From the IMG/VR virus record IMGVR_UViG_3300044941_000515, positions 1-36,821 of that record: a stretch of 36,821 nucleotides of DNA; one strand, written 5' to 3'. The notes below the pieces were generated by a model. It saw nothing but the letters and a program-made list of their open reading frames with translations, made no database searches and was not told the DNA's origin. This DNA comes from a virus (taxonomy: Duplodnaviria > Caudoviricetes). The translations under genes and the position numbers were made by a program. Within the stretch, counting starts at the first letter, position 1; each line of letters begins with the position of its first letter. Shown here in pieces: positions 228-24,692 of the stretch.

Positions 228-258
228 CATGAACGCGCTGTTCGGGAAAGAAGCCAAG
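228..258 (-). promoter_or_regulatory. Repeated 31-bp upstream motif, copy 1
   Basis: Minus strand CTTGGCTTC-TTTCCC-GAACAGCGCGTTCATG, 29 nt upstream of the ATG at 198. Confidence 0.8.
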
Positions 259-276
259 TCGAATTGGCTTCTTTTT
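248..276. terminator. Hairpin, possible bidirectional intrinsic terminator, overlapping motif copy 1
   Basis: AAGAAGCCAA-GTCGAA-TTGGCTTCTT (10-bp stem) with T-runs on both strands, just downstream of ORF 289..648. Confidence 0.55.
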
Positions 277-288
277 CGGGGATTTCGG

Positions 289-648
289 CTATCCGAGGCG
301 CGCGACGTAGCGGGCGAAGTCGCCGCCCGAGGGATCGACGTAGAGGTAGGGGCGACCGGGCGCGTGAACTTCGACACAGAGCACGCCGTCGGCGATGTTG
401 CCGCCCTTGCCTCGGAGCCATTCTCGAGAGAGATAGAGGTGTCGCGCGAAAGTGTCGAACTCGGCGGGCGTCATTTCGACCGTTTCGGTGATGAATATGC
501 GCGCGTTGCCGCTGGCGCACATCTCTTCGAGGCTCTCGGGCTTGCGTGCGAAGGGGAGTCGCACGCCGAGTTCTTCGACATGCAGCGTTTCGCCGCCGAA
601 CACCAGCGTGCGGGGCGTGCGTTCAATGGTGATGGTCATGGTGGGCAT
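289..648 (-). CDS. Hypothetical phage protein (C-terminal VDPSGGDFARY, weakly DUF6329-like)
   Basis: 119 aa with globular composition, GGAG RBS and upstream motif. Confidence 0.75.
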   Translation of the reverse strand: MPTMTITIERTPRTLVFGGETLHVEELGVRLPFARKPESLEEMCASGNARIFITETVEMTPAEFDTFARHLYLSREWLRGKGGNIADGVLCVEVHAPGRPYLYVDPSGGDFARYVARLG

Positions 649-686
649 GGGAGTTCTCCGTGTGGGCGTCGGCGATTCGACGCGAC

Positions 687-717
687 CATGAACGCGCTGT
701 GTGCGATGGAAGCCAAG
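687..717 (-). promoter_or_regulatory. Repeated 31-bp upstream motif, copy 2
   Basis: Minus strand CTTGGCTTC-CATCGC-ACACAGCGCGTTCATG, 38 nt upstream of the ATG at 648. Confidence 0.8.
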
Positions 718-759
718 CGCCGCGAGCGCGTAGATCGTCGCCGTACAGGTGGGTGTATC

Positions 760-786
760 GCGCCCCGCGCACGCGGCACGGGGCGC
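760..786. terminator. GC-rich hairpin downstream of ORF 796..1056
   Basis: GCGCCCCG...CGGGGCGC 8-bp stem; no clear U-tract. Confidence 0.3.
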
Positions 787-795
787 ATGCCGGCA

Positions 796-1056
796 TCAGC
801 GGCGGCTCTTTCCCACGATTAGGTCGTAGGCATCCCCCAATCGCGCCAACTGGTCGAGACGGACTTGCGGGCAGAGGCGATCTTCGACAGCGACGATGGC
901 ATCGCGCAGCACGTCGCCGCGCTCCGCCAGCGATTGCGCCTTTTCAAGACGCTGCAGTTGAAGCTCGATGTCCGAGCGCGTGGCGGCGAGTGCATCGATC
1001 AGCGCGCGCAAATGGCGCTCGCCTTCGTCCTGGGCGGCGGGTCTGTCATCGTTCAT
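796..1056 (-). CDS. Hypothetical helical/coiled-coil protein
   Basis: Start at MNDDRPAAQ (ATG 1056) chosen from the GGAG RBS and upstream motif; 86 aa. Confidence 0.65.
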   Translation of the reverse strand: MNDDRPAAQDEGERHLRALIDALAATRSDIELQLQRLEKAQSLAERGDVLRDAIVAVEDRLCPQVRLDQLARLGDAYDLIVGKSRR

Positions 1057-1080
1057 GGGCGTCTCCGTGGTGTGTGGCCG

Positions 1081-1111
1081 CATGAACGCGCTGTCGCCGC
1101 GACGAGCCAAG
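1081..1111 (-). promoter_or_regulatory. Repeated 31-bp upstream motif, copy 3
   Basis: Minus strand CTTGGCTCG-TCGCGG-CGACAGCGCGTTCATG, 24 nt upstream of the ATG at 1056. Confidence 0.75.
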
Positions 1112-1188
1112 CGCGAAGTGATGTCGCGCTGCGACAACCGGACACCCGTCGTAGAGGGTTCAACCTGCGTATTGACTTCGCGTAGGCA

Positions 1189-3675
1189 CTACGCCAACCG
1201 GCGCAGACTGACACGCTCGATGCGGCCGGCGAACGCGGCGTCGGCGGCGATGCGCAGCGCGGTGTTCGCGTTCGCGGTGAGCATTTCGACGAAGGCGCCA
1301 TTCGCGTTGCGCGTCGCGCCATCGATGGGTGCGACGCCCGCGAGGCCGACGCGTACCGAACCCGCCGTGACCTGGGACAACACCAGTTCGGTGCGGTACA
1401 CGCCGCCATCGACGAACGCGAACATCTGCATGAGATCGGAAGCGGTACCGGCGACCTTGACCGCGGCGCTGCCGGCGATCGACCAGCCGGCGCCGAGCGT
1501 CCACGCCGCCTGGGTGTCGAAGTCCGCATTCGCGAGCTTCTCGCCGCATTCGCAGGCGATCGTCCGGATGTGCCGCTGGCGGGACACGAGTACGCCGCGG
1601 CGACTGTCGACCTCGACGCGGACGGTGGCGTCATTGGCCAGCAGCACCTCGACCGTATGACTCGTCCCGACGATGCCCGTCGTCTCGTGCAGCACCGTCC
1701 CGCTGAGCGCGTGAAGGACGCGCACGGTCGTCGTCGTGCCCGGCTCCGGGCCGATGCTGCCGGCCTCATGCTCGATCAGACGATCACCCTGCAGCACGCG
1801 ATCGCGGTGCGCCCAGGCGAGGTCGAGTCGCGCGAACGCCGCCTGCGGCCACGCGGCACCGTTGATCCGCAACCGGCCCGGCGGATAGGGCCGGGCGTGG
1901 CGCGCGTCGAGTCGCACCTGTGCGATCGGCGCGAGTGCGGGATCGAGCGTGCCCTGTTGCGTGCGCGTAAGCAGTTTCGCCTGGACGGTGTCCCCGGCGA
2001 GGTACTCGGTCGGATCGGCGCCGACATAGGTGTCCGTGAACCACACCCGCACACCCGCCGCGTGCGGCGTCGGCACGGTATCGACGCAACCGCGTGCGAT
2101 CGTCAGGGTACCGACGACCGGATCGATGGCATCGATGCGAACGAGTTCTTCGTCGATCAACGCTTCGCTGCCGGCGGCGACCAGATCCAGGTCGCGCAGG
2201 TCCGCCAGCATCGCCACCGTGTCGGTCGGCCCCAGCGCACCCGCGAGGGTCGCCGTGGCCGAGAAGTCCCCGCCCGCGACCTCGACGAAGTCGCCCGCGC
2301 CGGTGCGCGTGACGAGCGAGTAGCCGTAGGCCGGCCCGTTCGGGCGTGCGCCGAGCGCGACCACGAATCCCGCATCGTCCTCGATCTGCGCCAGATCGGC
2401 CGGACGCAAGCGGCCGGCGAGATCGCGATACGTCGCCTCGACCAGGCGCTGCGCCGGCACCGGCAGTGGGCGCGTGTCCGGCGGCGTCCACGGGCCGATC
2501 ACCGGCCGCAGGTACGTGGTCGCCGCCATGCCGTCGATGTCCTGCACCAGCGTGAGCGCGAGCGCGCCGTCCGTGCGCGTGCCCTCGTCCACTTCCAGCA
2601 CCCGCACCGGCATGCGCTGCACGCCCTTGCGCCGCCAGGACAGCGCGAGCACGTCGCCGCGCTTCACGCCCCACCAGCGACGGTCGACGGTGAGCTTGAT
2701 CCGCTGCAGCAGGCTGCTGGCGGCGCTGGTTTCCCGTGCGGCGACGCGCTCGCACAGACTGCGGTTCCACAGACCTGGCAGCGTACGCCGATCGGCGACG
2801 ACGCGGCCCTGCGCCTGGACGTTCGCCATGTTCTGGAAGGTCGCGGCGAGTTCGAGGTTCGTCACGCAGTCGCGACCAAGCACAGTGACTTCGTTCACCG
2901 AACCATCGAGCAACGGCGTCTGCCAGCTCTCCAACGCGAGCACGCTGGTTTCGTCGAGCAGCGGCAACGTGGCGACATCGTAGTCGGGTCGGAACAACCG
3001 GTACACGAACTGGCCGCGCATCGGATCGAACGCCCACAGTCCACCGACGTGTGTGTTCACCGTCTGCAGAAAATTCCCGATCGAGTCCCCGCGTCGCCAA
3101 CCGAGACACAAGCCGAATTGCTCATCGTGCAACTGCTCGGCTGCGCTCAGAAAACTATCGCCATCGATCAACGCCGGATCGAGCCCGCAGCCCCACACCG
3201 TGTCGGTGAGGCACTGGTAGTGGATGTGCGCGGCGTTCATGCCGCGACCGATGCGCGCGAGCTGCGGCTGCCACACCGGCGTCGACCAGCCCTGCACGAA
3301 GCGTCCCCAGCGCTTGGCCCACAGCTTCAGATAGGGGTTCATCGCCCCGACCATTCCGCGGTACAGCGTGGTGCAGAGCCCGCGCGCGGCGGGCCACGGC
3401 CCCGGCACCTGCTGCTGCAGGTAGGGCACCGGCATCTGGTCCGGCTCGCCCATGCGGATCTGCAGCGTGCCGACGAGGCCGCCTTCCTTCTTGTCGCCGC
3501 CGAACAGTTGCGGCAAGTTGATCGCCAACGTGCCGCTGCCGGCGCGTTCGCCCTCGAACACCGTCTGCCCGCCGACCTTCACGCCCGCGAGGTAGTCGTT
3601 CGGGCCGATCGACTCGCCCATGTACAGGTACATGAAGTGCCGGAAGCCGATCGTCGGCTTGCTCGACTTACCCAC
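1189..3675 (-). CDS. Tail tip / central fibre (host-specificity) protein with a C-terminal beta-sandwich (CBM-like) domain
   Basis: 828 aa. MGKSSKPTIGFRHFM start, LFGGDKKEGG, MNPYLK, MNAAHIHYQCLTD-WG, ARGCVDTVP and RPYPPG motifs are typical of D3112/YuA-type tail proteins. Last gene of the tail module. Confidence 0.85.
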   Translation of the reverse strand: MGKSSKPTIGFRHFMYLYMGESIGPNDYLAGVKVGGQTVFEGERAGSGTLAINLPQLFGGDKKEGGLVGTLQIRMGEPDQMPVPYLQQQVPGPWPAARGLCTTLYRGMVGAMNPYLKLWAKRWGRFVQGWSTPVWQPQLARIGRGMNAAHIHYQCLTDTVWGCGLDPALIDGDSFLSAAEQLHDEQFGLCLGWRRGDSIGNFLQTVNTHVGGLWAFDPMRGQFVYRLFRPDYDVATLPLLDETSVLALESWQTPLLDGSVNEVTVLGRDCVTNLELAATFQNMANVQAQGRVVADRRTLPGLWNRSLCERVAARETSAASSLLQRIKLTVDRRWWGVKRGDVLALSWRRKGVQRMPVRVLEVDEGTRTDGALALTLVQDIDGMAATTYLRPVIGPWTPPDTRPLPVPAQRLVEATYRDLAGRLRPADLAQIEDDAGFVVALGARPNGPAYGYSLVTRTGAGDFVEVAGGDFSATATLAGALGPTDTVAMLADLRDLDLVAAGSEALIDEELVRIDAIDPVVGTLTIARGCVDTVPTPHAAGVRVWFTDTYVGADPTEYLAGDTVQAKLLTRTQQGTLDPALAPIAQVRLDARHARPYPPGRLRINGAAWPQAAFARLDLAWAHRDRVLQGDRLIEHEAGSIGPEPGTTTTVRVLHALSGTVLHETTGIVGTSHTVEVLLANDATVRVEVDSRRGVLVSRQRHIRTIACECGEKLANADFDTQAAWTLGAGWSIAGSAAVKVAGTASDLMQMFAFVDGGVYRTELVLSQVTAGSVRVGLAGVAPIDGATRNANGAFVEMLTANANTALRIAADAAFAGRIERVSLRRLA

Positions 3676-3949
3676 GGCGGCGGTTCCAGGCGCGCAGGCG
3701 CTGCAGGCGGGTGTACCGCGGCGGCGAGACCACGATCGGGCGCAGCGTCGGGATCACGATCGGACGTCGCCGCCAATGCCCGCGCACGAGGGCGCGCAGA
3801 TCCAGGCGCCATAGCGCGTGGAAGAGGCCTGCCGCGATGCCGAAGGCACCGAACGGGCGTTCGCCCGTGACCCACAGCCAGACCCCGGAGAGGATCGAGA
3901 CCACACAGGCGCACACGATCCAGACGCGATACATCGACTCACTTCGCAT
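3668..3949 (-). CDS. Small membrane protein, holin candidate
   Basis: 93 aa with two hydrophobic segments and an Arg-rich C-terminus; overlaps both neighbours. Confidence 0.5.
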   Translation of the reverse strand: MRSESMYRVWIVCACVVSILSGVWLWVTGERPFGAFGIAAGLFHALWRLDLRALVRGHWRRRPIVIPTLRPIVVSPPRYTRLQRLRAWNRRRG

Positions 3950-4208
3950 CGCGCGCCGCCTCTTCGACCAACGCCCGCTCGTCGCGCGCGATCTCGATCA
4001 CGCGGACGACGAAGGGATCGTCGTGCAGGTGGGGGTGGTCGTCGACGGCGATGCCGTCCTCGCACAGCGCGCGCAGATCGATGGCGTGCTGGCGGCACCA
4101 CGCCCGAATGCCCGGCGTGCAGAGCGGCCCGCCGGCCGGATCGATCGCGCGCACGTGCCGAAGGTGAATGCGCAGGCCGCGATTCGAAGGCATGCCGTTC
4201 GATGGCAT
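3939..4208 (-). CDS. Small tail assembly protein
   Basis: IHLRHVR...LCTPGIRAWCRQHAIDLRALCEDGI resembles the small gene preceding the tail-tip gene in D3112-like tails. Start is 4208 or 4193. Confidence 0.7.
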   Translation of the reverse strand: MPSNGMPSNRGLRIHLRHVRAIDPAGGPLCTPGIRAWCRQHAIDLRALCEDGIAVDDHPHLHDDPFVVRVIEIARDERALVEEAARDAK

Positions 4209-4210
4209 GG

Positions 4211-4438
4211 TCACTTCCCACCACTGGCCTTGATCGGCGTGGTGCGCAGATCGCCGTAGGCGAGGACATTGGGATCGTCCACCCACACCTCGCCGAAGAT
4301 CACCATCACCTCGCGACCTTCTTCGGCGGTTGGCACCGAGAAGTCGGCGAGCGACGGCGGCTTGGTCGATTGCGGCTTGGGCCGCATCGCGATGCTGATG
4401 GCGATGGAGAGAATCAGCACGAAGACGTAGACCCACAT
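4211..4438 (-). CDS. Small virion structural / tail assembly protein
   Basis: 75 aa with a hydrophobic N-terminus then PTAEEGREVMVIFGEVWV..PNVLAYGDL, typical of this tail type. Confidence 0.8.
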   Translation of the reverse strand: MWVYVFVLILSIAISIAMRPKPQSTKPPSLADFSVPTAEEGREVMVIFGEVWVDDPNVLAYGDLRTTPIKASGGK

Positions 4439-4534
4439 CGTGGACGGGTTCCTGGGGTGCGAGGTACGCGATGCGGGACGCGCGCAGCCGCCGTCCGGCG
4501 CGGTGGCGCCGGGCGGTGCGTGGGAGGGGGCGCA

Positions 4535-5332
4535 TCAGAAGACCGGATCGCTACCGAAGGGATTGCGCATGCCCTTCAGGGTCGGCTGGCCGCCGTAGTT
4601 CAGTTCATTGCGGAATTTGGGGCAGCCGTTCGGCCCCAGCGTGCGATCGCAGCCGGGGAACGCGACGACGCGCGCATCCTGCGCGAGTGCGGCCGGGGTG
4701 AGCAGGCGCAACGTGGCGCCCACGTGGCTGACCACGAAACGGCGTTCGACGCCGAGTGTCGCCGTCCACTGCAGCACGCCGCCGTCGAAGTGGCCGTCGT
4801 CGAATGCATCGAACGCGGCCGACGACACGGTGTAGCCGGTCGCATCGCTCAGGATCGCGGGGACGGCATGCGCGTCCGGATCGGCGTTGCACAGCCCCAA
4901 CCCCTGGCTGTAGAGCACCAGTGGACAGTTCGACTGCCAGCTACGGCGCAGGCCGAGGGTCTCGACGGCGGCGGCGAGCGACTCGCAGCGCAGCTTGGCG
5001 ACGCTGTGGGTTTCGTCCAGATTGGCGACATGCCCGGTCCAGCCCAGCCGCACCTGACCGTCGCGCACCCGCACCCGCTTGAGGTCCAGGCGCAGGCGCA
5101 GCCCCGGCGGCACCGGGCGGAACAGGTTCAGCAACGGCAGGTCGAGCGGCACGGTGATCTGCAGCGCGTTTTTCGCATCCTCCGCCGACTGCACGATCTT
5201 CTCGCGCGTCAGCGTGATCGGGGCGTAACGCTGGCCTTCGACGATCGCTTCGCGTTTGGCGTCGGTGTAGCGCCAGTGGTGCAGTCCGATCGAAAAGTCG
5301 TACAGCTCGATCTCGCGCGAGAGCAGGCTCAT
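4535..5332 (-). CDS. Tail hub protein (DUF2163 / phage BR0599 family)
   Basis: 265 aa with Cys motifs CPLVLY...LC and PGCDR...CPKFRNELNYGG. Confidence 0.85.
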   Translation of the reverse strand: MSLLSREIELYDFSIGLHHWRYTDAKREAIVEGQRYAPITLTREKIVQSAEDAKNALQITVPLDLPLLNLFRPVPPGLRLRLDLKRVRVRDGQVRLGWTGHVANLDETHSVAKLRCESLAAAVETLGLRRSWQSNCPLVLYSQGLGLCNADPDAHAVPAILSDATGYTVSSAAFDAFDDGHFDGGVLQWTATLGVERRFVVSHVGATLRLLTPAALAQDARVVAFPGCDRTLGPNGCPKFRNELNYGGQPTLKGMRNPFGSDPVF

Positions 5333-5342
5333 GCGTGCGGAC

Positions 5343-7058
5343 TCAGGGTTCTTCCGCCGGAATCCCGGCGAAGGACACAGCGCAGTCGAGCAGACCGTCG
5401 CTGTCGGCGTGGTGGCGCAGCTCGACTGTGTCGCCCGCTAGCGTGACCAGCGCCAGCCAGCTCACCAGGCGGACCTGTTCGGGGCGGACCACACGCCCCA
5501 GCGCGATGTCGATCCTCAGACGTTCCGCAGCATCTCCATTGGCGAGCGTGATCTCGTTCGACGCTTCGATGGCGCGGTACAACACCGCGCCATCGACCAG
5601 TTCGATGCGGACATGGCGACGGCCGGCCTGCTGGCGCAGACTGCGACTGACGCCGCAGGCGGCGACGGTGAGCGTGAGCGCGGTCTCGCCGATCGTCTCG
5701 GTCACGTCGAGATCGTCGGTCCAGGTCGGCAGCCACAGCGCCTCCGCCCGGCCCTGCAAGCCATAGAGCAGACCGCGGTGTGCGGCGCGTTCGGCGCGGC
5801 CGAACAATCGCCAGGCGTGCGACTGCGTGGTCCACACCAGGCCCGACGCATCGTCGACCTGCGTGCGGCCGACGTCGCCATCGAGCAGATCGAAGCGACG
5901 GGCCAGGATCGCGCTCGGGTCACGGGTTTCGTCCGGGCGGTGTTCGAGCACGGGGAAGCCGCGATAGCGCGTCGCCGGCAGTGCAGGCCGCCAGTCGCAG
6001 GGTTCGGTCGCCTCGAAGCGCAGTTGCGTGGACATCAGCCGGTCGGTGTGGCGCCGTAACTCCGGCGCGTCGGTCAGGCGCGCGGTGCGGCACGGGATCA
6101 GGCGTGTGCCGACCGGCCACGCGCGGCGCGTCGGCGCGCGCAGCGTCATGCGACCGTTCGCGATCTGCGCGACTTCGACCAGTTCGTAGGTCGCCACGTC
6201 CCGCCAGAGCATGGCGAGGCTACCGACCGCGAAATCGAGGCCCGCGGTGTCGACCGGGATCTCGGTCACACCCGCGGCGAGCGGCGCACGAAGGTGCGTC
6301 GTGTCGACGAACACAGGCAGCGCCCACACCCGCGCCGTCCAGTCGAACAGCGCGTACTCCACCCAGCGGCGTTCGACGCGATCGGCGAGCACCGCGAACT
6401 CCCACGACCGATGCGGCGCCTCGCGCAGCGGCGTGCGGGTGACGGTGCCGGCGATGGCGATCTGGACATCGGTGAGCCAGGCGAGCGTTTCGGTCAGCGG
6501 CTCGGACCAGTTGGGCGGCAGCGTCCATGCCTGCAGGCGCAGGCCGTCGATCCGGATCGACCACGTCGCGCCGTCGGCGAAGGACAGCCCCGCCACCGCG
6601 TCGATCACCGGCGGGCCGTCGAGGCCCACGGTGAGGGTCAGCACCCGCTCCTGCAATGGACGCAGCGCCAGCGGCAACGCCCCCGGCGCGGCAAGCGTGC
6701 TGCCGGCATCGCCCTCCAGGCGCAATGCGGTCAGCGTCTGCGGGACTGTGCGCCAGGCATTCCACACCGCGATCTCGCGGGTCAGCTCGGAGACGACGTT
6801 CCCAAGCCGAAGCGCGGTCGGCAGGACGTGGACGCGGTCGAACAGGTCCTCCGCGAAACGGTGCGCGAGGCGCCCGGTCGCGGGCCAGCGCAGCGCGGCC
6901 GGCGCCCGAAACACCCCTGCCCGCGCGACGATGCGCTCGCGACGGTACGCGGCCGGGGCGAACGCGGCCTCGCCGAGCGCATTCAACTCGGTCGAGAGCG
7001 CAGGATTGATCGCGCCGAACGCCCGCAGCGTCGGCGCGATGCCGGTCAAGGCCGCCAT
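5343..7058 (-). CDS. Virion structural (distal tail-type) protein
   Basis: Start MAALTG at 7058 overlaps the upstream stop (TGATG). VWNAW, PNWSEPLTETLAWLTDV and WLPTW motifs; 571 aa. Confidence 0.8.
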   Translation of the reverse strand: MAALTGIAPTLRAFGAINPALSTELNALGEAAFAPAAYRRERIVARAGVFRAPAALRWPATGRLAHRFAEDLFDRVHVLPTALRLGNVVSELTREIAVWNAWRTVPQTLTALRLEGDAGSTLAAPGALPLALRPLQERVLTLTVGLDGPPVIDAVAGLSFADGATWSIRIDGLRLQAWTLPPNWSEPLTETLAWLTDVQIAIAGTVTRTPLREAPHRSWEFAVLADRVERRWVEYALFDWTARVWALPVFVDTTHLRAPLAAGVTEIPVDTAGLDFAVGSLAMLWRDVATYELVEVAQIANGRMTLRAPTRRAWPVGTRLIPCRTARLTDAPELRRHTDRLMSTQLRFEATEPCDWRPALPATRYRGFPVLEHRPDETRDPSAILARRFDLLDGDVGRTQVDDASGLVWTTQSHAWRLFGRAERAAHRGLLYGLQGRAEALWLPTWTDDLDVTETIGETALTLTVAACGVSRSLRQQAGRRHVRIELVDGAVLYRAIEASNEITLANGDAAERLRIDIALGRVVRPEQVRLVSWLALVTLAGDTVELRHHADSDGLLDCAVSFAGIPAEEP

Positions 7059-14517: not shown

Positions 14518-15150
14518 ATGGAAACAGCGAACGCGTCCGCTTCCGCGGAGGTTCGAGGTGGGTTACAACAGATCCCTGCCCTGGCCAGGAAAGGACGCAT
14601 GCCCGCACCGATTCGCGACAAGACCGCGGTACCGCCATTGCCCCCGCTGCCGCGCCATCTGGTCCGGTTGCACAAGGCGCTGGTGTGGTGGTGCAACGTC
14701 GTCGTGACCGATCCGCTGGGACGGCTGCGGTGGATCTACCGCTACATGAACATCTACAACCGCTTCATCTCGACCCTCGCGGTGTGTCGAAGAGGCTGCA
14801 GTGCGTGCTGCCACATCGACGTGGATCTCACCGAAACCGAGGCGGTCCTCATCGCACGTCATACCGGGCGCGACTACACGAAGCGGGCCATCCATACGCA
14901 TGGCCACACTTCGCCATGTCCGTTTCTGGGGGCGCAGGGCGAATGCACGATTTACTCGGTGCGCCCGTTCAACTGCCGCACCTTCCATGCGCTGGACGAT
15001 CCGAAGTACTGCGCGACCGGAGAGGATCACGCCGTCTATGGCCTCCCCTCCTTCGATTACACGTCGAAAATCCTGTTTTCGCTGGCGCAGGCCATCCGCC
15101 ACATTGACGGCCATCGCCCCCGGCGCGACATCCGGGATTTCTTCTCGTGA
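14518..15150 (+). CDS. YkgJ / CxxxCxxCC Zn- or Fe-S-cluster protein (moron); start uncertain (14518 or 14599)
   Basis: CRRGCSACCH ... CPFL....CTIYSVRPFNCRTF signature; antisense to the late operon. Confidence 0.85.
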   Translation: METANASASAEVRGGLQQIPALARKGRMPAPIRDKTAVPPLPPLPRHLVRLHKALVWWCNVVVTDPLGRLRWIYRYMNIYNRFISTLAVCRRGCSACCHIDVDLTETEAVLIARHTGRDYTKRAIHTHGHTSPCPFLGAQGECTIYSVRPFNCRTFHALDDPKYCATGEDHAVYGLPSFDYTSKILFSLAQAIRHIDGHRPRRDIRDFFS

Positions 15151-15162
15151 GCGGATCGGTCG

Positions 15163-15600: not shown

Positions 15601-15898
15601 GCAGCACCGTTTCGGTCACGAAGCCGTCGTCGACGACGATGCGCTCGATCCGGAAACGGCCGCCTGGCACGTGCAGGACATCGCCCGCACGCGGTCGCCA
15701 CTCGGGATTGCGGAACTTCACGGTGGTGACGCGGGCGAAGCCTTGGCTGTAGTCGCCCAGCTCGGCGACGTTGTAGGTGATCACCACGCGCACCGGCACC
15801 GGCGGCCGGCGACCGCGGCGCACAATGGCCGGCTCGCCGAATACCGCGAACAGCGCGTCGTGCGCGGCCTCGAAGGCCGGATCGAGCGGACTGCTCAC
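15593..15898 (-). CDS. Head-tail joining protein (gpFII-like)
   Basis: 101 aa, beta-rich, PRAGDVL...RFRIERIVVDDG; position. Confidence 0.7.
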   Translation of the reverse strand: MSSPLDPAFEAAHDALFAVFGEPAIVRRGRRPPVPVRVVITYNVAELGDYSQGFARVTTVKFRNPEWRPRAGDVLHVPGGRFRIERIVVDDGFVTETVLHG

Positions 15899-16419: not shown

Positions 16420-16428
16420 GGGCGTGCC

Positions 16429-17439: not shown

Positions 17440-17830
17440 GGGAGGCGGCGACCTGGGGGAATTGACGGACGAGGACGCCGAGCGCCGCCAGCTGCGCGAG
17501 GGCAGCTGCGGTCTGTTCGGCGGTGAGGGTGGGGGCGAAGACCAGCGCGCCGCCAAAGACGATGGCGTGACGCGAGACGATCACGCTGCGGCGGCGTTCG
17601 GTCGCGGTCGTGGTGATCGCTTCGATCAGGACACCGGCGGCGATCTCGCGGCCGTCGTTCGCGGCGGGATCGAGGGCGACGATCTCGCGGGTCGCGGTCA
17701 CGCGACCGACGACGGCGCCGAGCGCGAGGGTCTGGCCCGCGGCGACGACGACTTCGTCGCGGGAGTACAGATTCGGGGCTTCGTACTTGAGCAGGTCGGC
17801 GAGGTTGACGGGTTCGTGCAGCACAGGCAT
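17420..17830 (-). CDS. Head decoration protein (gpD-like)
   Basis: LADLLKYEAPNLYSRD, LALGAVVG and DG.EIAAGVL motifs; lies between protease and capsid. Confidence 0.88.
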   Translation of the reverse strand: MPVLHEPVNLADLLKYEAPNLYSRDEVVVAAGQTLALGAVVGRVTATREIVALDPAANDGREIAAGVLIEAITTTATERRRSVIVSRHAIVFGGALVFAPTLTAEQTAAALAQLAALGVLVRQFPQVAASHAESLR

Positions 17831-17833
17831 GGC

Positions 17834-18193
17834 TCAGGCTCCTTGCGGGGTCGTCGACGCGATGCGCTTGCGCACCGCATCGAGGACCGGGTTGGTGGTG
17901 GTCGCCGCCGCAGGCGCCGCGTTCGCGAGGTGGTGCGAGGCGATCTCGACCTGGTCGGCGCGGGCTTGCAGCAACACCTGGCGGACCTGGGCGGCGCTCA
18001 TGCGCGCGGCGAGGAACTCGGTGGTGCGTTCCGGGCAACCGGCGAGCAGGCACAGCTCGGCGATGGCGACGGCCTCTGCCTGCGGATCGGTGGAAGGCGG
18101 CGCGACGGACGCGGTCGGCGCCGGCACAGCGGCCGGTGCGGGCGCGGCAGGGGGCGTGGACGGCGCGGGCGCCGTCGCAGTGGATTCGGTCAT
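17834..18193 (-). CDS. Nested scaffolding protein (Nu3-like), in frame within the protease gene
   Basis: Internal ATG (MTESTATAP) with GGAG 6 nt upstream, after a Pro-rich linker; same arrangement as lambda C/Nu3. Confidence 0.6.
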   Translation of the reverse strand: MTESTATAPAPSTPPAAPAPAAVPAPTASVAPPSTDPQAEAVAIAELCLLAGCPERTTEFLAARMSAAQVRQVLLQARADQVEIASHHLANAAPAAATTTNPVLDAVRKRIASTTPQGA

Positions 18194-19117
18194 GGACAAC
18201 TCCGTGGGGGGTGGGAGCGCAAGGCGCGCGGGTAATGCGAGCGGTGGGTTGGAACCGGGCGGACGCCCGCGCCTGCCGAGGGCGGTGGCGAAGTCGGCGA
18301 GGGTGGCGTCGAGCGACGCGACGCCATCGGCGAGGCCCGCAGCGAGCGCGTCCTCGCCGAAGAACAGCGCCGCTTCGGTCGCGCGCACGGCGTTGGCGTC
18401 GAGGCCGCGCATGGCGGCGACGTGCGCGACGAACAGGGCGTAGAGGCGATCGATTTCGGATTGCAGCGCGTCGGTCGCCTGCGGCGTCAGCGGCGCGTGT
18501 GGGGTGGCGTCGTTCTTGTGTGCGCCGGCATACAGCGCGGTCACGCTGAGACCGTTCTGCGCGTTGCGCACCGACTGGTCGATGTGCAGCGCGATCACGC
18601 CGATCGAGCCGACGCCGCCGGTGGTCGCGAGCGTCACGCGCTGCGCAGCGCAAGCGAGCGCATAGCCGGCGGAGAACGCGCTGTCGCCGGCATGCGCCCA
18701 CACCGGCTTTCGTGCGCTCGCCTCACGAATGCGTGCGCCCAACTCGAACACGCCGCCGGCTTCACCGCCGGGCGAGTCGATATCGAGCAGGATGCCCGCG
18801 ACCTCCGGGGCCGCGAGCGCCGCGTCGAGATCGGCCGCAATGCGCGTGTAGGACGTGAGGCCCGACATCGCATCGAGTCCGATCGCGCGGCGCACCAGCG
18901 TGCCGTGGATCGGAATGATCGCGATGCCGGGCGCCGTCGGCACGGGGTCCGACGCCATCGGCGCGTCCGCCGGCAGCACGAGTCCGATGGAAGCCGTCTC
19001 GATCGGTGCCAGACCGATGCGCGGACCGAGCACGGCGAGAATCGTGTCGAGTTTGGCGCGCGCGATCAGCAGCGGCGTCCCGTAGAGACGGGACGCCAGG
19101 TGGACGAGAGCAGTCAT
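17834..19117 (-). CDS. Prohead protease, S49 family (gpC-like)
   Basis: Start MTALVHLASRLYGTPLL is coupled to the portal stop. LDIDSPGGEAGG, AFSAGYALA and GSIGV motifs. Confidence 0.93.
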   Translation of the reverse strand: MTALVHLASRLYGTPLLIARAKLDTILAVLGPRIGLAPIETASIGLVLPADAPMASDPVPTAPGIAIIPIHGTLVRRAIGLDAMSGLTSYTRIAADLDAALAAPEVAGILLDIDSPGGEAGGVFELGARIREASARKPVWAHAGDSAFSAGYALACAAQRVTLATTGGVGSIGVIALHIDQSVRNAQNGLSVTALYAGAHKNDATPHAPLTPQATDALQSEIDRLYALFVAHVAAMRGLDANAVRATEAALFFGEDALAAGLADGVASLDATLADFATALGRRGRPPGSNPPLALPARLALPPPTELSMTESTATAPAPSTPPAAPAPAAVPAPTASVAPPSTDPQAEAVAIAELCLLAGCPERTTEFLAARMSAAQVRQVLLQARADQVEIASHHLANAAPAAATTTNPVLDAVRKRIASTTPQGA

Positions 19118-20598
19118 CAATTCGCCTGGGAAGAAGGAGTCGCCGCCGCTTGCGCGGGGTGGTCGTAACGGGGATCGGAGTCGAAGCGCAGGCCGAGCGC
19201 GTCGGCGCGTGCGTTGTCGGCGGCGATCTCGCGGTCGATGTCCTCGGCGTCGTAGCCGAAGCTGGAGATCGCTTCCGAGCGCGACAGCAGGCCGCCGCGG
19301 ATCGCCGCGATCATCGCGTCGAACTCCTTCTTCGGATCGACCCACTGCCAGCCCTGCGCGATCCACTTCACCGCGAGGTATTGGCGACGACGCGCGATGC
19401 CGCCGCGCGCGTAACCGGGCAGTACCAGCGCGCCTTCGAGCACGGCCTGCGTCATCCACGCGCGCCACAGCGGGCGGCACAATTGATGCACGATCACGCC
19501 GTGCTGGATCGCCTCGCAGCGGCGCCGGAATTCCAGCAGGCCGGCACGGATGGAGGAGTAATTCACCTGCGTCAGATCGCCGGTGAGCATCTCGTAGGTG
19601 ATGCCCATCGCCGCGGCGACGGCGCGGAACTGTTGGCGCATGAACTCCGCGTAGCTCGAGCCCACGTCCGCCGGCTGCGAGAACTTCACGTCCTCGCCCG
19701 GCTCCAGGAACTGCATCGTCCCCGGCTCCAGGCTCGCCATCGCGACGCCCTGCGCATCGGCTTCGCCTTCGCCGAGCAAGGGGTCTTCCGGGCCGCCGCG
19801 GGTGATGAAGCCCGCGAACATCGCCGCGGTCTTCTTGCGCACCAGCTCTGCATCGTCGTACTGGTCGAGTTCGTGCAGCTTCACCAGCGCCCGCGCCAGC
19901 CACGGCTCGCCGCGAATCTGACCGGGGCGCAACGGGCGGAACAGGTGCAGGATTTCGTTCGCCGGCACACGCACCGTGTCCAGGCCACCGTGCGCGGACA
20001 TCGGCGCGAGCATCCCGTCGCCGGGATGGCTCTTGTAGAGGTGGTAGGCGACGCGCACACCGATGCCGTTGAACTCGATGCCGGCGCGGATCACGTTGCC
20101 GTTGGGCAGTTCGCGGTTCAGCGTCGCCGGAAGGTGTTCGGGTTCGAGCAGTTGCAGTTGCAGGCCGACCGACAGCCGATCCTCCGGCCGCCGGTAGCGC
20201 AGCCGCACCAGGCACTCGCCCCCTTCGAGCATCGCCCGGCAGGCCAAGCCCTGCAGCCCGTACAGATCCGTCAGCCCGGCGGCATCCGCCTCCTCGCACC
20301 AGTCGCGCCATAGCGCCTGCACCGCCTCGCGCTGGGCGAGATCGGCGAGCATCGACTGCGGCTTGATCCCGGTGCCGATGGCGTTGGCGACGAAGGCTTC
20401 GACGCCGGTCGCCGCCCAGGCGTTGCGACGCACCAGGTCGCGGCTCTTGGCGCGCAACTCGTCCTGCGCGTAGGCGAGCGCCGCGACCGCGCCGGGATTG
20501 CCGACCTGCCAGAAGCGCGCACGACGTCCGCCGCCGACGCCATCGTAGGTGGGCGACGCGCCGAACATCCGGGCGCGCAGCCGCGACCACCAGCTCAT
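19117..20598 (-). CDS. Portal protein, lambda family
   Basis: LRAKSRDLVRRN, RPGQIRGEPW, TGDLTQVNYSSIRAG and WVDPKKE motifs; start MSWWSRL. Confidence 0.95.
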   Translation of the reverse strand: MSWWSRLRARMFGASPTYDGVGGGRRARFWQVGNPGAVAALAYAQDELRAKSRDLVRRNAWAATGVEAFVANAIGTGIKPQSMLADLAQREAVQALWRDWCEEADAAGLTDLYGLQGLACRAMLEGGECLVRLRYRRPEDRLSVGLQLQLLEPEHLPATLNRELPNGNVIRAGIEFNGIGVRVAYHLYKSHPGDGMLAPMSAHGGLDTVRVPANEILHLFRPLRPGQIRGEPWLARALVKLHELDQYDDAELVRKKTAAMFAGFITRGGPEDPLLGEGEADAQGVAMASLEPGTMQFLEPGEDVKFSQPADVGSSYAEFMRQQFRAVAAAMGITYEMLTGDLTQVNYSSIRAGLLEFRRRCEAIQHGVIVHQLCRPLWRAWMTQAVLEGALVLPGYARGGIARRRQYLAVKWIAQGWQWVDPKKEFDAMIAAIRGGLLSRSEAISSFGYDAEDIDREIAADNARADALGLRFDSDPRYDHPAQAAATPSSQAN

Positions 20599-20602
20599 GC
20601 GA

Positions 20603-20824
20603 TCACGTGCCCTTGTCGGTGTTGACGACGACACGGCGCGGGCGACGACGCGCAGTCCCTGCCGCAACCGCCTGCTCTTCGAGACCGCGTCGCACGACGC
20701 CGATGGCCGCGATCAGGTCATCGACCGAGCGGTACTCGACGGTGCGGTCGCCGAAGGTGACGCGCTGCTCGCCGGTCGTGAGCGCGCGTTCGAGCGCCGC
20801 GAGGTGTTCGGGGGTGTAGGCCAT
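20603..20824 (-). CDS. Head completion protein, gpW-like
   Basis: 73 aa, LERALTTGEQRVTFGDRTVEYRS; lies between TerL and portal. Confidence 0.88.
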   Translation of the reverse strand: MAYTPEHLAALERALTTGEQRVTFGDRTVEYRSVDDLIAAIGVVRRGLEEQAVAAGTARRRPRRVVVNTDKGT

Positions 20825-20845
20825 GCGGTGTTGACTCGATGGAGT

Positions 20846-22807
20846 TCAGCGGTGGAGCCAGCGGCTCTTGACCACACGCCGACGATTCGGGCGCGTAGAT
20901 GCGGAAAGGCCACCGTTGTCGGTGGCCTCCTCGGGTCCGGTGGCGGTGGCGATGGGCGGTGGATCGTTCGTCCGGGCAATGCCGAGCGAGCGTTCCAGTT
21001 CGCGCCAGTGACGATCCTCGAAACGGTCCAGCCCGGCCGCCGCCGCTGCGGCGCGCGCGTACACGTAGCAATCGAGCGCCTCGTTGCGCTCGCGCAGCTT
21101 CTGCCACTCGCGGACCGCATAACCGCTCCGGTCCCGTCGCGTGATCAACTGCTCCGCGCACAACTGCTGCAGGAACTCGGCGTCGACCTTCGGCAGGTGG
21201 ATGTAGCCCGCCGGATACACCGGCGTCAGGCCGTCCTCCGCCACGTCGGCGTGCAGGCGCAGGTGCTGGTACAGCGCCTGCTTGGCGATGCCGACCACCA
21301 CCGTGTACACCTTCACGCCGCGGCGCAGCTTCTTGCCGGCGACGGTGACGTCCACCGCCGTCGGCGTCCCGATCAGCGCCGCGCCGCGTGCCGCGCCCTT
21401 GACCGCCATGACCCGGCTGTCACGGCAGGCGCGCACAAAGGCATACACGGCCTGCGTCGCGAAGCCGGTATCGATGGCGAAGCGCGCCAGCGGCAACTGC
21501 GCGCCACCCGCGTGCGTCCAGGTCTCCGCGAGCAGTGCGCGCAACTGCGTCCACACCGCGTCGCGCGCGGTATCGCCCATCAACACGCGGTGCTCGACCA
21601 GCCACGCCGTCTTGCCCCGACCGAAGGCCCACACCGAGACTTCGATGCGGTCCTTCTGCACGTCCGCGCCGCCGACCAGCAGCAGGCCGCCGCGCGGCAC
21701 GCTGCCGATCCGGTAGTCCTCGCGCCGTTCCAGCAACTGCTGCCAGTCCGGCGCCTCGCCCTCCTCGACCCAGGTCTCGCCCAGTTCGGTGTTCTTGAAG
21801 GTCTTGATCGCCGACGCCGAGCCGGTGACCTTGTCGATCGCGCTCTCCCACGCCGCGGCGATCTCGCGCCAACTGCGCCAGCCCACCGGGCTGTACAACG
21901 ACGACAGGTGAAACCCGGCGGTCCGGCCGTTGCCCGGTGCGGTCGCCCGCCACTGGCCGTGTTCGAGCATCCACGTCTTGTGGTGCTCGGCGATCGGCTG
22001 CTCGCACGACTTGCAGACATAGGTCGCCGTCTCCGGTCGGCCGCGCTCCCAGCGCAATTGCTCGAATCGGAACCACTGCGCATGCGCGCAGTGCGGGCAC
22101 GGCACGAAGTAGCGTCGTTGATCGCTCGCTTCGTACTCGCGCTCGATGCTGCTGGCGCCCGCAATCGTCGGCGTCGAAACGATGAAGATCTTGCGGCGGG
22201 TGAAGGTGCGCGTGCGCGCCTCCGCCAGCGAGATCGCATCGCCTTCGCCCTCGACATCGAGCGGATAGCCGTCGACCTCGTCGAGAAACAGATATCGCAC
22301 CGGCATCGAGCGCAAACCGACCGCGCTGTTGGCGCCGGTCATCACCAGCACGCCGCCGCGGAACTCCTTGGCGAGGATGGTGTTGCCCGCATCCCGCGAG
22401 CGCGCCGGTGCGATCAACGCCGCCAGCACCGGCGACTCCTCGATCAGCGGATCGATCCGCTGTTTCGAGTTGCGCTTGGCCATTTCCACGGTCGGCCACA
22501 CCGCCATCATCGGGCCCGGCGCGTGGTGGATCACGTAGCCGATCCAGCAACTGCCGCACTCGGTACCGCCGACCTGCGCGCCCTTCATGAAGACCACGCG
22601 CTCGATCGGCGAAACCGGCGAGAGACAGTCCATGATCTCGCGCAAGTACGGCGTGCGCGTGGTGCGCCAGCGGCCGGGTTCGGCCGAGGCCTTGCTCGAC
22701 AGTATCCGGTGCTGGTCGGCCCAGGTGGAGACCGACAGCAGCGGATCGGGGGTCAGGCCCTCGTGCCAGGCGCGCTCGATCTCGTGCGCGCCTTCGTAAT
22801 CGAGCAT
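20846..22807 (-). CDS. Terminase large subunit, lambda gpA family
   Basis: RTPYLREIMD, Walker A-like KGAQVGGTE, Walker B YLFLDEVD, CPHC/CKSC Zn motif and RNEALDC. Confidence 0.96.
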   Translation of the reverse strand: MLDYEGAHEIERAWHEGLTPDPLLSVSTWADQHRILSSKASAEPGRWRTTRTPYLREIMDCLSPVSPIERVVFMKGAQVGGTECGSCWIGYVIHHAPGPMMAVWPTVEMAKRNSKQRIDPLIEESPVLAALIAPARSRDAGNTILAKEFRGGVLVMTGANSAVGLRSMPVRYLFLDEVDGYPLDVEGEGDAISLAEARTRTFTRRKIFIVSTPTIAGASSIEREYEASDQRRYFVPCPHCAHAQWFRFEQLRWERGRPETATYVCKSCEQPIAEHHKTWMLEHGQWRATAPGNGRTAGFHLSSLYSPVGWRSWREIAAAWESAIDKVTGSASAIKTFKNTELGETWVEEGEAPDWQQLLERREDYRIGSVPRGGLLLVGGADVQKDRIEVSVWAFGRGKTAWLVEHRVLMGDTARDAVWTQLRALLAETWTHAGGAQLPLARFAIDTGFATQAVYAFVRACRDSRVMAVKGAARGAALIGTPTAVDVTVAGKKLRRGVKVYTVVVGIAKQALYQHLRLHADVAEDGLTPVYPAGYIHLPKVDAEFLQQLCAEQLITRRDRSGYAVREWQKLRERNEALDCYVYARAAAAAAGLDRFEDRHWRELERSLGIARTNDPPPIATATGPEEATDNGGLSASTRPNRRRVVKSRWLHR

Positions 22808-22841
22808 GCCTGAATCCGGTGAAATGATGGCGTTCGCCGCG

Positions 22842-22872
22842 CTTGGCTTCTGTGCGGAACAGCGCGTTCATG
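22842..22872 (+). promoter_or_regulatory. Repeated 31-bp upstream motif, copy 4
   Basis: CTTGGCTTC-TGTGCG-GAACAGCGCGTTCATG, 35 nt upstream of the ATG at 22908. Confidence 0.8.
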
Positions 22873-22907
22873 CGGTCCCCGGCCAGACGGCCATCGAGGA
22901 CACCGCC

Positions 22908-23234
22908 ATGCACGACGCGCTCCACACCGATCTCCTGCTCGTCCGCCAGCGCATCGAGTCGCTGTACGACGCTTATCCCGACGACGAGGAGTTCCAGAAC
23001 GGCCTGAACTTCGCGGTCAGCGGCATCGAGCAGGCGCTCGGCGCGGCCGGCGGCGAACCCGACGCCGTCCTGCACCCCGGCGACCACCTCGACGGCATCG
23101 AGAGCCTGCTCGCCGAAATGCACATCCGCCTCGAAACGCGCAGCGAGGAGGCCAACGATGACCCCGCGCAGCACGGGCGCCTCGCCATGATCGAGCACCT
23201 CCTGCAACAGGCCTGCGCGCTGCTCGTGGGCTAA
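22908..23234 (+). CDS. Acidic helical hypothetical protein inserted antisense between terS and terL
   Basis: GAGGA RBS before ATG 22908; 108 aa with 21 Asp/Glu versus 5 Arg and no Lys. Confidence 0.75.
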   Translation: MHDALHTDLLLVRQRIESLYDAYPDDEEFQNGLNFAVSGIEQALGAAGGEPDAVLHPGDHLDGIESLLAEMHIRLETRSEEANDDPAQHGRLAMIEHLLQQACALLVG

Positions 23235-23782
23235 TTCACCTTCACGCGCACTTCGCCCAACTCGGCGAGGTGCGCGCGGACCGCCGCTTCCAACGCCAGA
23301 TGCATCGCATGCGGATCGACCGCGAGCGTCGCCGCCATCTGCGCCGACACCCGCGCGGGCCAGTTCAACCACGCATCGCGCTCGTCGCGCGCCAGCTTGA
23401 ACACATGCGCCACGACCTGCGAACGCTCGACCAGTTCGCCCTTCAGGCGCGCGAGGCGCACCTTGTTGGTCTGCGCTTTCACCACCTCGTTGACGGTGCG
23501 CGCCTGCAACAGCGAGGCACCGCCCGCCGGCAGCGTCGCCGTGCCCGCGTCGCGACCCGTGTCGCGCCCGATGTCGGCCGCCTCCGGCACCGTCACGCGC
23601 GGTGCGCGCGCCTGCGTGCCGCTGCGTGCCGGCGCGGAATTGCGCGCCCACTCCGCATCGGCCTTCGCCGCATCGATGGTGCCGTCGGCCTCCGGCGCGA
23701 TGCGCCCGGCCCGGATCGCCTTGTGGACCGCGGTGTCGGTAACGCCGCGATGGCGCGCATACGCGCGGATCGAAATTCCCAT
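23231..23782 (-). CDS. Terminase small subunit (Nu1-like)
   Basis: N-terminal wHTH MGISIRAYARHRGVTDTAVHKAI, coiled coil LARLKGELV and RDAWLNWPAR; upstream of TerL. Confidence 0.8.
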   Translation of the reverse strand: MGISIRAYARHRGVTDTAVHKAIRAGRIAPEADGTIDAAKADAEWARNSAPARSGTQARAPRVTVPEAADIGRDTGRDAGTATLPAGGASLLQARTVNEVVKAQTNKVRLARLKGELVERSQVVAHVFKLARDERDAWLNWPARVSAQMAATLAVDPHAMHLALEAAVRAHLAELGEVRVKVN

Positions 23783-23801
23783 CCGAATGTTTGATTGACG
23801 A

Positions 23802-23832
23802 GTTGACTTTCGGCGCGAACAGCGCGCCAGGC
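23802..23832 (+). promoter_or_regulatory. Degenerate copy of the repeated motif (copy 5)
   Basis: GTTGACTTT-CGGCGC-GAACAGCGCGCCAGG: same spacing, TTGACT instead of TTGGCT, right half-site lost. Confidence 0.5.
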
Positions 23833-23882
23833 GACGGCTTCCCGTCCGTTGGCTTAACACCACTCGCATGCGCGACATCGGG

Positions 23883-23913
23883 CTTGGCTTCGGTGGGGAA
23901 CAGCGCGTTCATC
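23883..23913 (+). promoter_or_regulatory. Repeated 31-bp upstream motif, copy 6
   Basis: CTTGGCTTC-GGTGGG-GAACAGCGCGTTCATC, followed by an A/C-rich leader, AGGAG and ATG 23962. Confidence 0.8.
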
Positions 23914-23961
23914 ACGCCGCGCCAACCACATCCCACACCACACGCAAACAGGAGCACCGCA

Positions 23962-24540
23962 ATGAACACCGCCGCCACCGCCAAGCCGATCACGCTCAAC
24001 GACAATCAGATCGCCGTGCTGACTCACGCCATCGACCACACGCAGGGCAAGGTCGAATGGTTCCCCGACACCATCAAGGGCGGCGCGCGCAAGAAGGTCA
24101 TCGAGGGCCTCTTCACCCGCGCGATGATCATCGGCAGCAACGGCGACTGGATCGTCACCGACGCCGCCTACGAGGCGCTGGGCCGCCCGCGCCCCGACCA
24201 GACCGCCGCCACCGAAACGGCGACGCCGGCCGGCAAGAAGGCCACGAAGGCCGCACGCAAGGCCAAGGCCGCGCCGAAGACCGAAGCCTCGGGAGAAGGC
24301 GAACAGGCCGCGCCGCGCACCCGCGAGAACAGCAAGCAGGCGCAGGTGATCGCGATGCTCAAGCGACCCGAGGGCGCCACCATCGCGCAGATCTGCGAAG
24401 CGACGAACTGGCAGGCTCACACGGTGCGCGGCACCTTCGCCGGGGCCTTCAAGAAGAAGCTCGGTCTGACCGTCACCTCCGACAAGGCCGAAGGCGGCGT
24501 GCGCGTCTACCGCATCGTCGAGGCCGCGCCGACGGCGTGA
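23962..24540 (+). CDS. DUF3489 domain protein (winged-helix-like, putative DNA-binding)
   Basis: C-terminal RENSKQAQVIAMLKRPEGATIAQICEATNWQAHTVRG...KKKLGL...RVYRI signature; strong RBS. Confidence 0.9.
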   Translation: MNTAATAKPITLNDNQIAVLTHAIDHTQGKVEWFPDTIKGGARKKVIEGLFTRAMIIGSNGDWIVTDAAYEALGRPRPDQTAATETATPAGKKATKAARKAKAAPKTEASGEGEQAAPRTRENSKQAQVIAMLKRPEGATIAQICEATNWQAHTVRGTFAGAFKKKLGLTVTSDKAEGGVRVYRIVEAAPTA

Positions 24541-24563
24541 TGTCGCAGCGCAACGCAGCCTGA

Positions 24564-24593
24564 CGCAATGCCGCGCCGATGCGCGGCATTGCG
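24564..24593. terminator. Perfect 13-bp hairpin after the DUF3489 gene
   Basis: CGCAATGCCGCGC-CGAT-GCGCGGCATTGCG; no U-tract, so terminator function is uncertain. Confidence 0.45.
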
Positions 24594-24661
24594 CACCGAC
24601 AATCGATGCGCGACGCACCTCGCGAAAGAGCAAAAAACAAGCCGAAAAGCGCGATCTTTCG

Positions 24662-24692
24662 CTTGGCTTCCATCGCGAACAGCGCGTTCATG
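24662..24692 (+). promoter_or_regulatory. Repeated 31-bp upstream motif, copy 7
   Basis: CTTGGCTTC-CATCGC-GAACAGCGCGTTCATG, preceded by A-tracts and followed by a CACACACCACAC leader. Confidence 0.8.

Follow-up and report, generated by a model that had tools for sequence, protein, structure and literature searches.

A family-wide 31-base motif, very probably an unusual promoter, precedes small accessory genes and the DUF2924-serine integrase operon of temperate phages

The phage fragment IMGVR_UViG_3300044941_000515 (Duplodnaviria; Caudoviricetes), analysed here over its whole 36,821 nucleotides (36.8 kb; the entire IMG/VR record, hereafter the window), is a piece of a lambda-GpA-type temperate phage and carries six full copies of a 31-base motif, each ahead of a small gene. 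The motif is real and family-wide, and in complete relatives it also heads an operon encoding DUF2924 and a serine integrase. Judged from its sequence features, it is very probably a promoter. The explanation that we favour, with slightly better than even confidence, is that the motif is a sigma-70-type, though non-canonical, promoter that host RNA polymerase reads with a probable phage helper, that it serves a set of integration and lysogeny genes, and that its copies double as points of cassette exchange.

All six copies that an earlier, sequence-only reading had placed in the window were recovered. Five differ from the motif by at most three mismatches, with 0.00 such sites expected from 100 shuffles, and copy 3, with four mismatches, still scores 31 bits, the matrix maximum in 30 simulated windows being 10.3. 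The additional copy that had been called degenerate is a half copy, in which TTGACT and ACAGCGC are kept and the right-hand (-10) part is lost. Each full copy stands, as described, 24-48 nt ahead of a small gene (motif-to-ATG gaps of 29, 38, 24, 35, 48 and 33 nt), the palindrome GAAC-N5-GTTC is intact in copies 1, 4, 6 and 7, and copies 1 and 7 have A-tracts ahead of them. Other proposed parts of the cassettes held only in part. Of the three upstream hairpins claimed, those of copies 2 and 7 stand out from shuffled sequence (z -2.5 and -2.6) and that of copy 1 does not (z -0.5); copy 6 has one as well (z -2.6), and none of the upstream hairpins qualifies as a U-tailed terminator. The leaders of copies 2 and 4 fold (-11.7 and -12.4 kcal/mol) and are not unstructured as claimed. 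A standard sigma-70 promoter scan returned 0 sites in both regions scanned, and a single weak terminator-like site came up, on the minus strand; Rfam matched nothing in the window, nor anything in 40 kb of the closest named relative.

Beyond the window, the exact motif is present in at least 128 viral and at least 127 genome loci, and the named hosts among the matches listed are mostly Burkholderiales, Rhodocyclales and Lysobacterales, with Methylococcus and Thermithiobacillus also represented. In five whole host genomes, 31 of 37 motif matches lie inside annotated prophages (reversed-pattern control: 0); of the six others, four were examined, and two of these aim at DUF2924- or DUF3489-like starts. 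The matrix scan of relatives and hosts that had been suggested, with a table of the genes downstream, bore out a family-wide motif with about 600 distinct sites and 27 gene families. Of the distinct sites, 601 have full flanks, and in 575 of these an open reading frame (ORF) starts within 75 nt downstream, as against 137 of 583 in the opposite direction; 483 of those 575 starts lie 25-39 nt from the motif. An ATG with a Shine-Dalgarno-like sequence accompanies 490 of 601 motif sites but only 33 of 600 random positions. The half-to-half distance, said to be invariant in the window, is fixed in 231 of 232 copies (loci L256-L405).

If motif position 37 is taken as +1, these sites acquire the geometry of a promoter. 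TTGGCT, which had been singled out as -35-like, then sits at -35 to -30, the spacer is 17 bp long, and G-14 and T-7 are present in 574 and 569 of 575 sites, respectively. Position 36 (-1) is a pyrimidine in a fraction of 0.99; a pyrimidine/purine step stands at 36/37 in 0.84, compared to 0.26 elsewhere in the leader (all family-weighted). Upstream, in windows picked after the profile was seen, the fraction of A reaches 0.49 at -40 to -44 and 0.52 at -51 to -53, compared to 0.16-0.20, and is higher in 26 of 27 families; these A-tracts coincide with -42 and -52, at which, according to the available excerpts of PMC4496709, two C-terminal domains of the polymerase alpha subunit (alpha-CTDs) bind promoter DNA. 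The TTGACA-like -35, the 17-bp spacer, T-7 and a start 7 nt on are all features of canonical sigma-70 promoters. Conservation acts on the DNA level: CTT is found in 574 of 575 sites and CAT in 515, with no CAC, and we rejected protein-coding constraint as its source because the fixed codons (CTT, GTT and CAT) are rare ones in phage genes. Furthermore, a full copy diverges from the terminase small subunit gene terS in 61 of 64 distinct regions and so works without an upstream co-directional gene; an RNA element is disfavoured as well, since no upstream transcript could include the terS-diverging copies. Several other assignments were tried and discarded: a MerR-like spacer of 19-20 bp (A-11 and T-7 occur together in only 0 and 36 of 575 sites), RpoH, RpoN and LexA readings (spacing or bases unfit, by eye against the consensus sequences) and the use of contig ends at 24673-24675 in assembled runs as start-site evidence (all eight runs compared consist of contigs, several of them probably from DNA, and the ends fall inside the repeat).

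What sets the motif apart is the lack of A-11, which is found in 1 of 575 sites; while the matrix was seeded with the motif, such a change would be tolerated. In the excerpts of PMC4496709, A-11 is thought to nucleate promoter opening, although T-7 can outweigh it in opening kinetics. When 82 regions upstream of DUF2924, mostly from a phylum-wide genome sample, were searched for motifs without a seed, the same skeleton was recovered in other letters, e.g. CTGGATAA...GCCCTTATG. About a dozen of the 82 regions gave an alignment at another place, owing to a DUF3489 gene immediately upstream, and the variant motif lies farther upstream in several DUF3489-DUF2924 operons; the DUF2924 genes of Wolbachia WO had the motif upstream in 0 of 2 cases. 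In 44 regions picked as credible from this broad set, A-11 occurs once and T-12 never. For the repressor-divergent operon, the promoter in the same phages is of the ordinary TTGACA/A-11/T-7 type in six cases out of seven.

The genes under the motif point to its role. In 14 phage regions, no copy precedes the genes for tail fibre, major tail, capsid, SppA, portal, terL or terS, nor those for methylase, DUF6362, RuvC, HTH_17 (two instances of which came without upstream sequence), phrog_37634 or repressor. With 0 copies before these 13 structural, replication and repressor gene kinds, the notion of promoter-leader-gene cassettes independent of the late operon stands; likewise, 0 of 6 HTH_3 repressor genes have the motif within 160 nt. 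All DUF2924 genes in the same regions (8/8) have the motif ahead, as do 33 of 35 DUF2924 loci in protein-anchored sets, in which 74 of 79 DUF3489 loci have it within 130 nt and four more within 450 nt (one of 80, at a contig edge, was left out). DUF2924 opens an operon that also encodes a large serine recombinase and a small recombinase subunit. The claim that no core gene is headed by the motif is thus correct for the window and not for the relatives, and the proposed restriction to accessory genes falls with the 33 integrase operons.

Upstream of DUF2924, the motif lies in frame inside a 60-70-aa ORF, f48, and the frame across the motif is open in 33 of 33 DUF2924 loci, versus 10-83% for other large families. 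A helix protein without annotation, f48 (L369:7717-7935 and 42 homologues, alignment A6) has invariant R17, E20 and G28 in all 43 sequences and matches no family in Pfam, NCBIfam or PHROG; its profile also drew DUF6900 proteins weakly. Co-folding of f48 with the integrase of the same relative, L369, gave a score of 0.67, compared to 0.00 for the best of three controls, the score mark being reached by 116 of 157 solved pairs and 2 of 215 mismatched pairs; contact agreement between runs was at least 89% and partner predicted local distance difference test (pLDDT) values were at least 65. The modelled interface places the conserved f48 helix (17-33) on integrase residues 360-428, which we take to be the coiled-coil region where known directionality factors bind. 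On this model, f48 would bind the C-terminal helices of the integrase as a directionality factor, making it a candidate for a new family of such factors, and a transcript starting inside f48 would supply integrase without directionality factor, as in the logic of lambda pI. It is mainly because the motif transcript would give integrase without f48 that we place the regulon at integration and lysogeny, a timing that the layout makes fairly probable.

In the mechanism that we envisage, the motif would drive the small accessory cassettes in the window phage and the DUF2924-serine integrase operon in complete relatives. Transcription would start at motif position 37, with predicted contacts of the alpha-CTDs at -42/-52, sigma region 4 at -35, region 3 at G-14 and a pocket for T-7; a phage helper would open the promoter lacking A-11, and the repeated copies would be the points where cassettes come and go. 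The host RNA polymerase probably reads the motif, and there is about an even chance that a phage helper is needed for opening. Between phages, the Beta/Gamma motif does not change, whereas repressors do and f64, discussed below, shares just 18-31% identity; this speaks for a reader that is conserved and belongs to the host, and the conserved host polymerase is likelier in this role than phrog_37634/f64. In addition, the over-conservation of ACAGCGC (95-100%) and the half copy near terS (in 15 of 64 regions) suggest a further motif-binding protein.

The pair formed by phrog_37634 (L398:2669-3904) and f64 (L394:3203-4165) lies, conserved, opposite the repressor in relatives, behind a canonical promoter, and both are predicted DNA-binding proteins. 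The phrog_37634 model (pLDDT 91.7) has an RdgC, CENP-N/L, TBP-like fold with a weak hit to lambda RexA, and this fold rules it out as a sigma factor; the f64 model (pLDDT 88.4) combines a zinc ribbon with an OmpR/PhoB-type winged helix (Z 8.2, root-mean-square deviation 2.6, 86 aligned). The two are apparently fused in gp6 of phage AcaML1, as judged by profile hits (direct BLAST of gp6 did not show it). Upstream of HTH_17 (G002, G004-G007, G009 and G010), lineage-specific direct repeats of 9-11 nt, with a spacing of 12-34 nt (23 in several), precede the early replication operon; they are likely activator sites and would make better f64 targets than the motif.

A bolder version of our reading is tentative at best. 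Here the motif would define a new promoter class, in which host sigma-70 polymerase docked by the upstream (UP) element, -35, G-14 and T-7 would be unable to melt the DNA until a phage factor acts, perhaps phrog_37634 with its RdgC/TBP fold or a small conserved protein; the switch would couple integrase free of recombination directionality factor (RDF) to a swappable array, and f48 would found a new RDF family.

Several observations weigh against the reading that we favour. The pyrimidine/purine step at the predicted start is found in only four of the six window copies, the exceptions being copy 1 (A/C, near 222) and copy 4 (C/C, near 22878). There is a second pyrimidine/purine peak (0.77) at 39/40, 3 nt downstream, and with the 20-bp spacer that follows from it, 534 of 575 sites would have A at -11 but only 36 would have T-7. 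Given the role of T-7 in opening kinetics, no helper may be needed, and the candidate helper pair was not found in genome G016, the motif being present in 3 of 3 elements examined. The window itself lacks an integrase module. The f48-integrase model was made on proteins of a relative, it is helix on helix, and likeness to solved integrase-RDF complexes may contribute to it. Finally, f48 has its own upstream region, the timing is read from the layout, and the early replication genes of G009a and G010 follow on directly from the integrase operon, which would also fit an induction-phase promoter.

Among the alternatives, host sigma-70 polymerase acting alone survives best, although we consider it unlikely. 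The promoter would then be deliberately weak or supercoiling-dependent and, with no helper, would maintain expression of integrase and morons in the lysogen. This agrees with the presence of every other sigma-70 contact, with the weight that T-7 can carry in opening (PMC4496709, excerpts) and with the fact that no phage protein tracks the motif strictly; it does not account for the near-invariance of ACAGCGC, which exceeds what sigma-70 is known to read, for a half copy that keeps -35 and ACAGCGC without -10 as if for a binding protein, or for an A-11 that is avoided rather than drifting, both in the main set and in the broad one (1/44).

Somewhat less probable is an early-lytic set, switched on at induction by repressor-controlled phrog_37634/f64 and supplying excision, replication, host-takeover or anti-defence proteins, which retains the earlier proposal of an early host-takeover or anti-defence programme as a rival. 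The position and predicted folds of the pair would suit such a role, DUF2924 is present in 29 of 34 genomes with phrog_37634 (the reverse holds for only 29 of 65, and kin are not independent), and the integrase operons of G009a and G010 are collinear with replication genes. However, the motif transcript would leave out the modelled directionality factor, f64 diverges among phages with the same motif and has better candidate targets in the lineage-specific repeats, the pair was not found in G016, and PADLOC had no match to the cargo (0 of 15 proteins). The position of the motif inside a predicted directionality-factor gene points to integration and lysogeny instead.

We regard as improbable a private promoter for an alternative or phage-encoded extracytoplasmic function (ECF)-like sigma factor. 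The information content of the motif is high, and its CGTT presumably resembles ECF -10 boxes; the -35, however, is TTGACA-like, and the distant variants (CCTTAT, ATTGCT, GGTACT) do not retain CGTT. While ECF factors can read non-A at -11, as in the sigma-L consensus given in the consulted part of bioRxiv 10.1101/381020, no sigma family was found among 104 proteins scanned (44 + 30 + 30, covering part of the relatives' ORFs), and no host regulon shares the motif, its matches in the five host genomes being mostly prophage. Least probable is a LexA-like dyad operator, RNA hairpin or mere recombination site with no promoter role: the dyad is intact in 400 of 575 sites and junctions do fall at the motif, but 308 departures include only 3 compensatory changes, the outer dyad bases vary more than the loop, the dyad is missing from distant variants, Rfam has no match, single copies persist without exchange (DUF2924), and the UP, -35, T-7 and start-site signals would be left unexplained. 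The earlier interpretation of the palindrome as an operator is thus not supported, and neither is that of the hairpin as a fixed cassette part, as only 6 of 27 gene families have it.

The suggestion that the repeats serve as exchange points is well founded: units have been gained and lost motif-to-motif among relatives. Seven relatives (G001, G002, G003, L145/L146 on one contig, L159, L028 and L007) carry a single copy instead of two, flanked upstream by the sequence that precedes window copy 3 and downstream by the sequence that follows copy 2; in G006 both copies are retained. Contigs of two assembled runs skip from 700/701 to 1120, and an extra unit is found at copy 7 in G002, L259, L264 and L265. 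Back-joints in the assembled runs, of the kind that excised mini-circles would give, extend no more than 31-34 nt on their short side, and the repeat itself explains them. The terS-terL unit is absent together with its motif in seven relatives, and its breakpoints lie off the motif, indicating that this unit arrived as an insert. Homologous exchange at motif copies is highly probable; from motif to motif it may be Sak4-mediated, with the Sak4-like protein of the window as candidate catalyst.

No description of the motif was found in the literature, the search of which left supplements, a possible home of start-site tables, outside; the portions consulted of PMC4520260, PMC5567305, PMC12924245 and PMC3826726 contain nothing on it. 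The nearest parallel in cassette shuffling is the promoter-early stem-loop (PeSL) of the T4-type phages RB49/phi1 (Arbiol et al. 2010; PMC2839356), which, in the excerpted text, matches the sigma-70 consensus, is very strong, always includes a terminator stem-loop and belongs to virulent phages. As far as those excerpts go, both are repeated promoters with an upstream A/T-rich region before small unknown genes, and recombination of neighbouring copies adds or deletes a unit and leaves one chimeric copy; unlike PeSLs, our motif has no T-12/A-11 and no fixed stem-loop, belongs to temperate phages and also heads an integrase operon.

In lambda, pI lies inside xis, and the CII box is TTGC-N6-TTGC. 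The CII regulon comprises pI, pRE and paQ, with pI giving only int (PMC5300877, in part), and on that partial account the likeness lies in one promoter class for integrase without directionality factor, plus promoters against lytic genes. The motif differs in having no TTGC-N6-TTGC repeats and no copy before the repressor (0/6), no CII-like gene was identified, the integrase is a serine rather than a tyrosine one, and the cargo genes are many and swappable. The motif thus works like PeSL in cassette shuffling and, if the f48 model holds, like lambda pI in integrase control, and it fails the defining features of PeSL (consensus -10, stem-loop) and of the CII regulon (repressor promoter).

In Cluster K mycobacteriophages, according to the available text of Pope et al. 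2011 (PMC3203893), start-associated sequences (SAS) lie at the ribosome-binding site, and their extended form (ESAS) is an inverted repeat with variable spacer. These too are conserved oriented repeats before small non-structural genes, but the motif ends 24-48 nt before the start and has a fixed spacer and promoter geometry; not being at the ribosome-binding site and having no variable-spacer inverted repeat, it is not an SAS. Serine integrases have known directionality factors, e.g. SPbeta SprB and phiC31 gp3. Like these, f48 is small and is modelled onto the integrase C-terminal coiled-coil region, but it matches no known family. Lambdoid morons are genes inserted among late genes together with a promoter of their own. 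The terS-terL unit resembles them in this, whereas all units here share one conserved promoter and have no intrinsic terminators; moron criteria are quoted in the consulted part of PMC5567305.

The features of the window are collected in Table 1. Downstream of the six copies lie eight small proteins, with family names only for DUF6900, DUF3489 and phrog_8020; searches of Pfam, NCBIfam and PADLOC families found nothing further on cargo function.

Table 1. Motif copies, cargo genes and related features of the window
Feature	Coordinates	Strand	Remarks
Motif copy 1	228..258	-	Predicted -35 257-252, -10 234-229; upstream A-tract
Motif copy 2	687..717	-	Predicted +1 near 681; hairpin 40-75 nt upstream, no U-tail
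Motif copy 3	1081..1111	-	Four mismatches; copy 3-to-copy 2 unit missing in 7 relatives
Motif copy 4	22842..22872	+	Within antisense insert between terS and terL
Half copy	23802..23832	+	19-30 nt from terS start; one clade, 15/64 terS regions
Motif copy 6	23883..23913	+	Diverges from terS; predicted +1 near 23919
Motif copy 7	24662..24692	+	Upstream A-tracts; one extra unit here in four relatives
DUF6900 protein, 65 aa, cargo of copy 1	1..198	-	PF21841, E 1.8e-23
119-aa protein, no known family, cargo of copy 2	289..648	-	Motif ahead in 9/9 relatives
86-aa protein, no known family, cargo of copy 3	796..1056	-	
108-aa protein, no known family, cargo of copy 4	22908..23234	+	Whole insert including motif absent in 7 relatives
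DUF3489 protein, 192 aa, cargo of copy 6	23962..24540	+	PF11994, E 3.9e-34
phrog_8020 protein, 125 aa, cargo of copy 7	24726..25103	+	E 3.8e-41
72-aa protein	25151..25369	+	Probably cotranscribed from copy 7
61-aa protein	25428..25613	+	Probably cotranscribed from copy 7
GC-rich hairpin, no U-tail	24553..24595	+	Between DUF3489 gene and copy 7
Terminase small subunit (terS)	23231..23782	-	Full motif points away from start in 61/64 relatives
Sak4-like single-stranded DNA annealing protein	35211..36095	-	phrog_124, E 7.7e-39

Profile scans of the window identified a lambda-type GpA terminase, portal, capsid and tail genes, three methyltransferases, DUF6362, RuvC, a primase, a Cas4-like nuclease, Sak4 and HTH_17; the repressor and integrase modules are cut off from the record, and relatives carry the motif in the integration module. 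The P4-type primase (30934-33225) is split over two ORFs of 520 and 237 aa, as opposed to a single ORF of 773-775 aa in G002 and G006, by a frameshift or an assembly error. An antisense moron with a CxxCxxCC domain (14599-15150, plus strand) sits amid tail-completion genes with no motif ahead, and relatives have other inserts or none there. Directly adjoining the cassette block, 25677-29535 holds two ParB-N6/N4 methyltransferases and a C5 methyltransferase-like region, and a link to the GCGC/CATG bases of the motif is possible. DUF6362 (29933-30349) has a C-terminal helix-turn-helix-like stretch where late activators usually sit; neither it nor DUF3489 has a sequence match in PDB. In the closest relatives (L341:1-3484; G006 57450-60933), the stretch from HTH_17 to the regulatory module has gained an insertion with an Imm11 immunity gene and the gene for an XVIPCD-domain protein. 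On the GMI1000 megaplasmid (L436, NC_003296.1), five motif copies survive in a decayed prophage remnant whose core genes are broken. The described phage AcaML1 (JX507079.1) has four motif copies; its product names seem shifted around gp23-gp34, gp23 matching terminase small subunit, and its DUF6900 gene at 21967-22209 is without annotation.

We found no description of gene control in this phage family in the searchable literature, and DUF2924, the gene marked by the motif, was detected in 65 of the 301 genomes sampled from the phylum. For at least 27 unknown gene families, the motif allows start sites, operons and cassette boundaries to be predicted, and it provides a natural case in which to study the opening of a promoter without A-11. 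With f48 as their candidate directionality factor, serine integrases of a large group could become reversible genome-engineering tools. If the reading that we favour is true, integration and accessory genes would be switched on together; were the new-class version to hold, the motif would be a lysogeny switch in one of the commonest proteobacterial prophage families.

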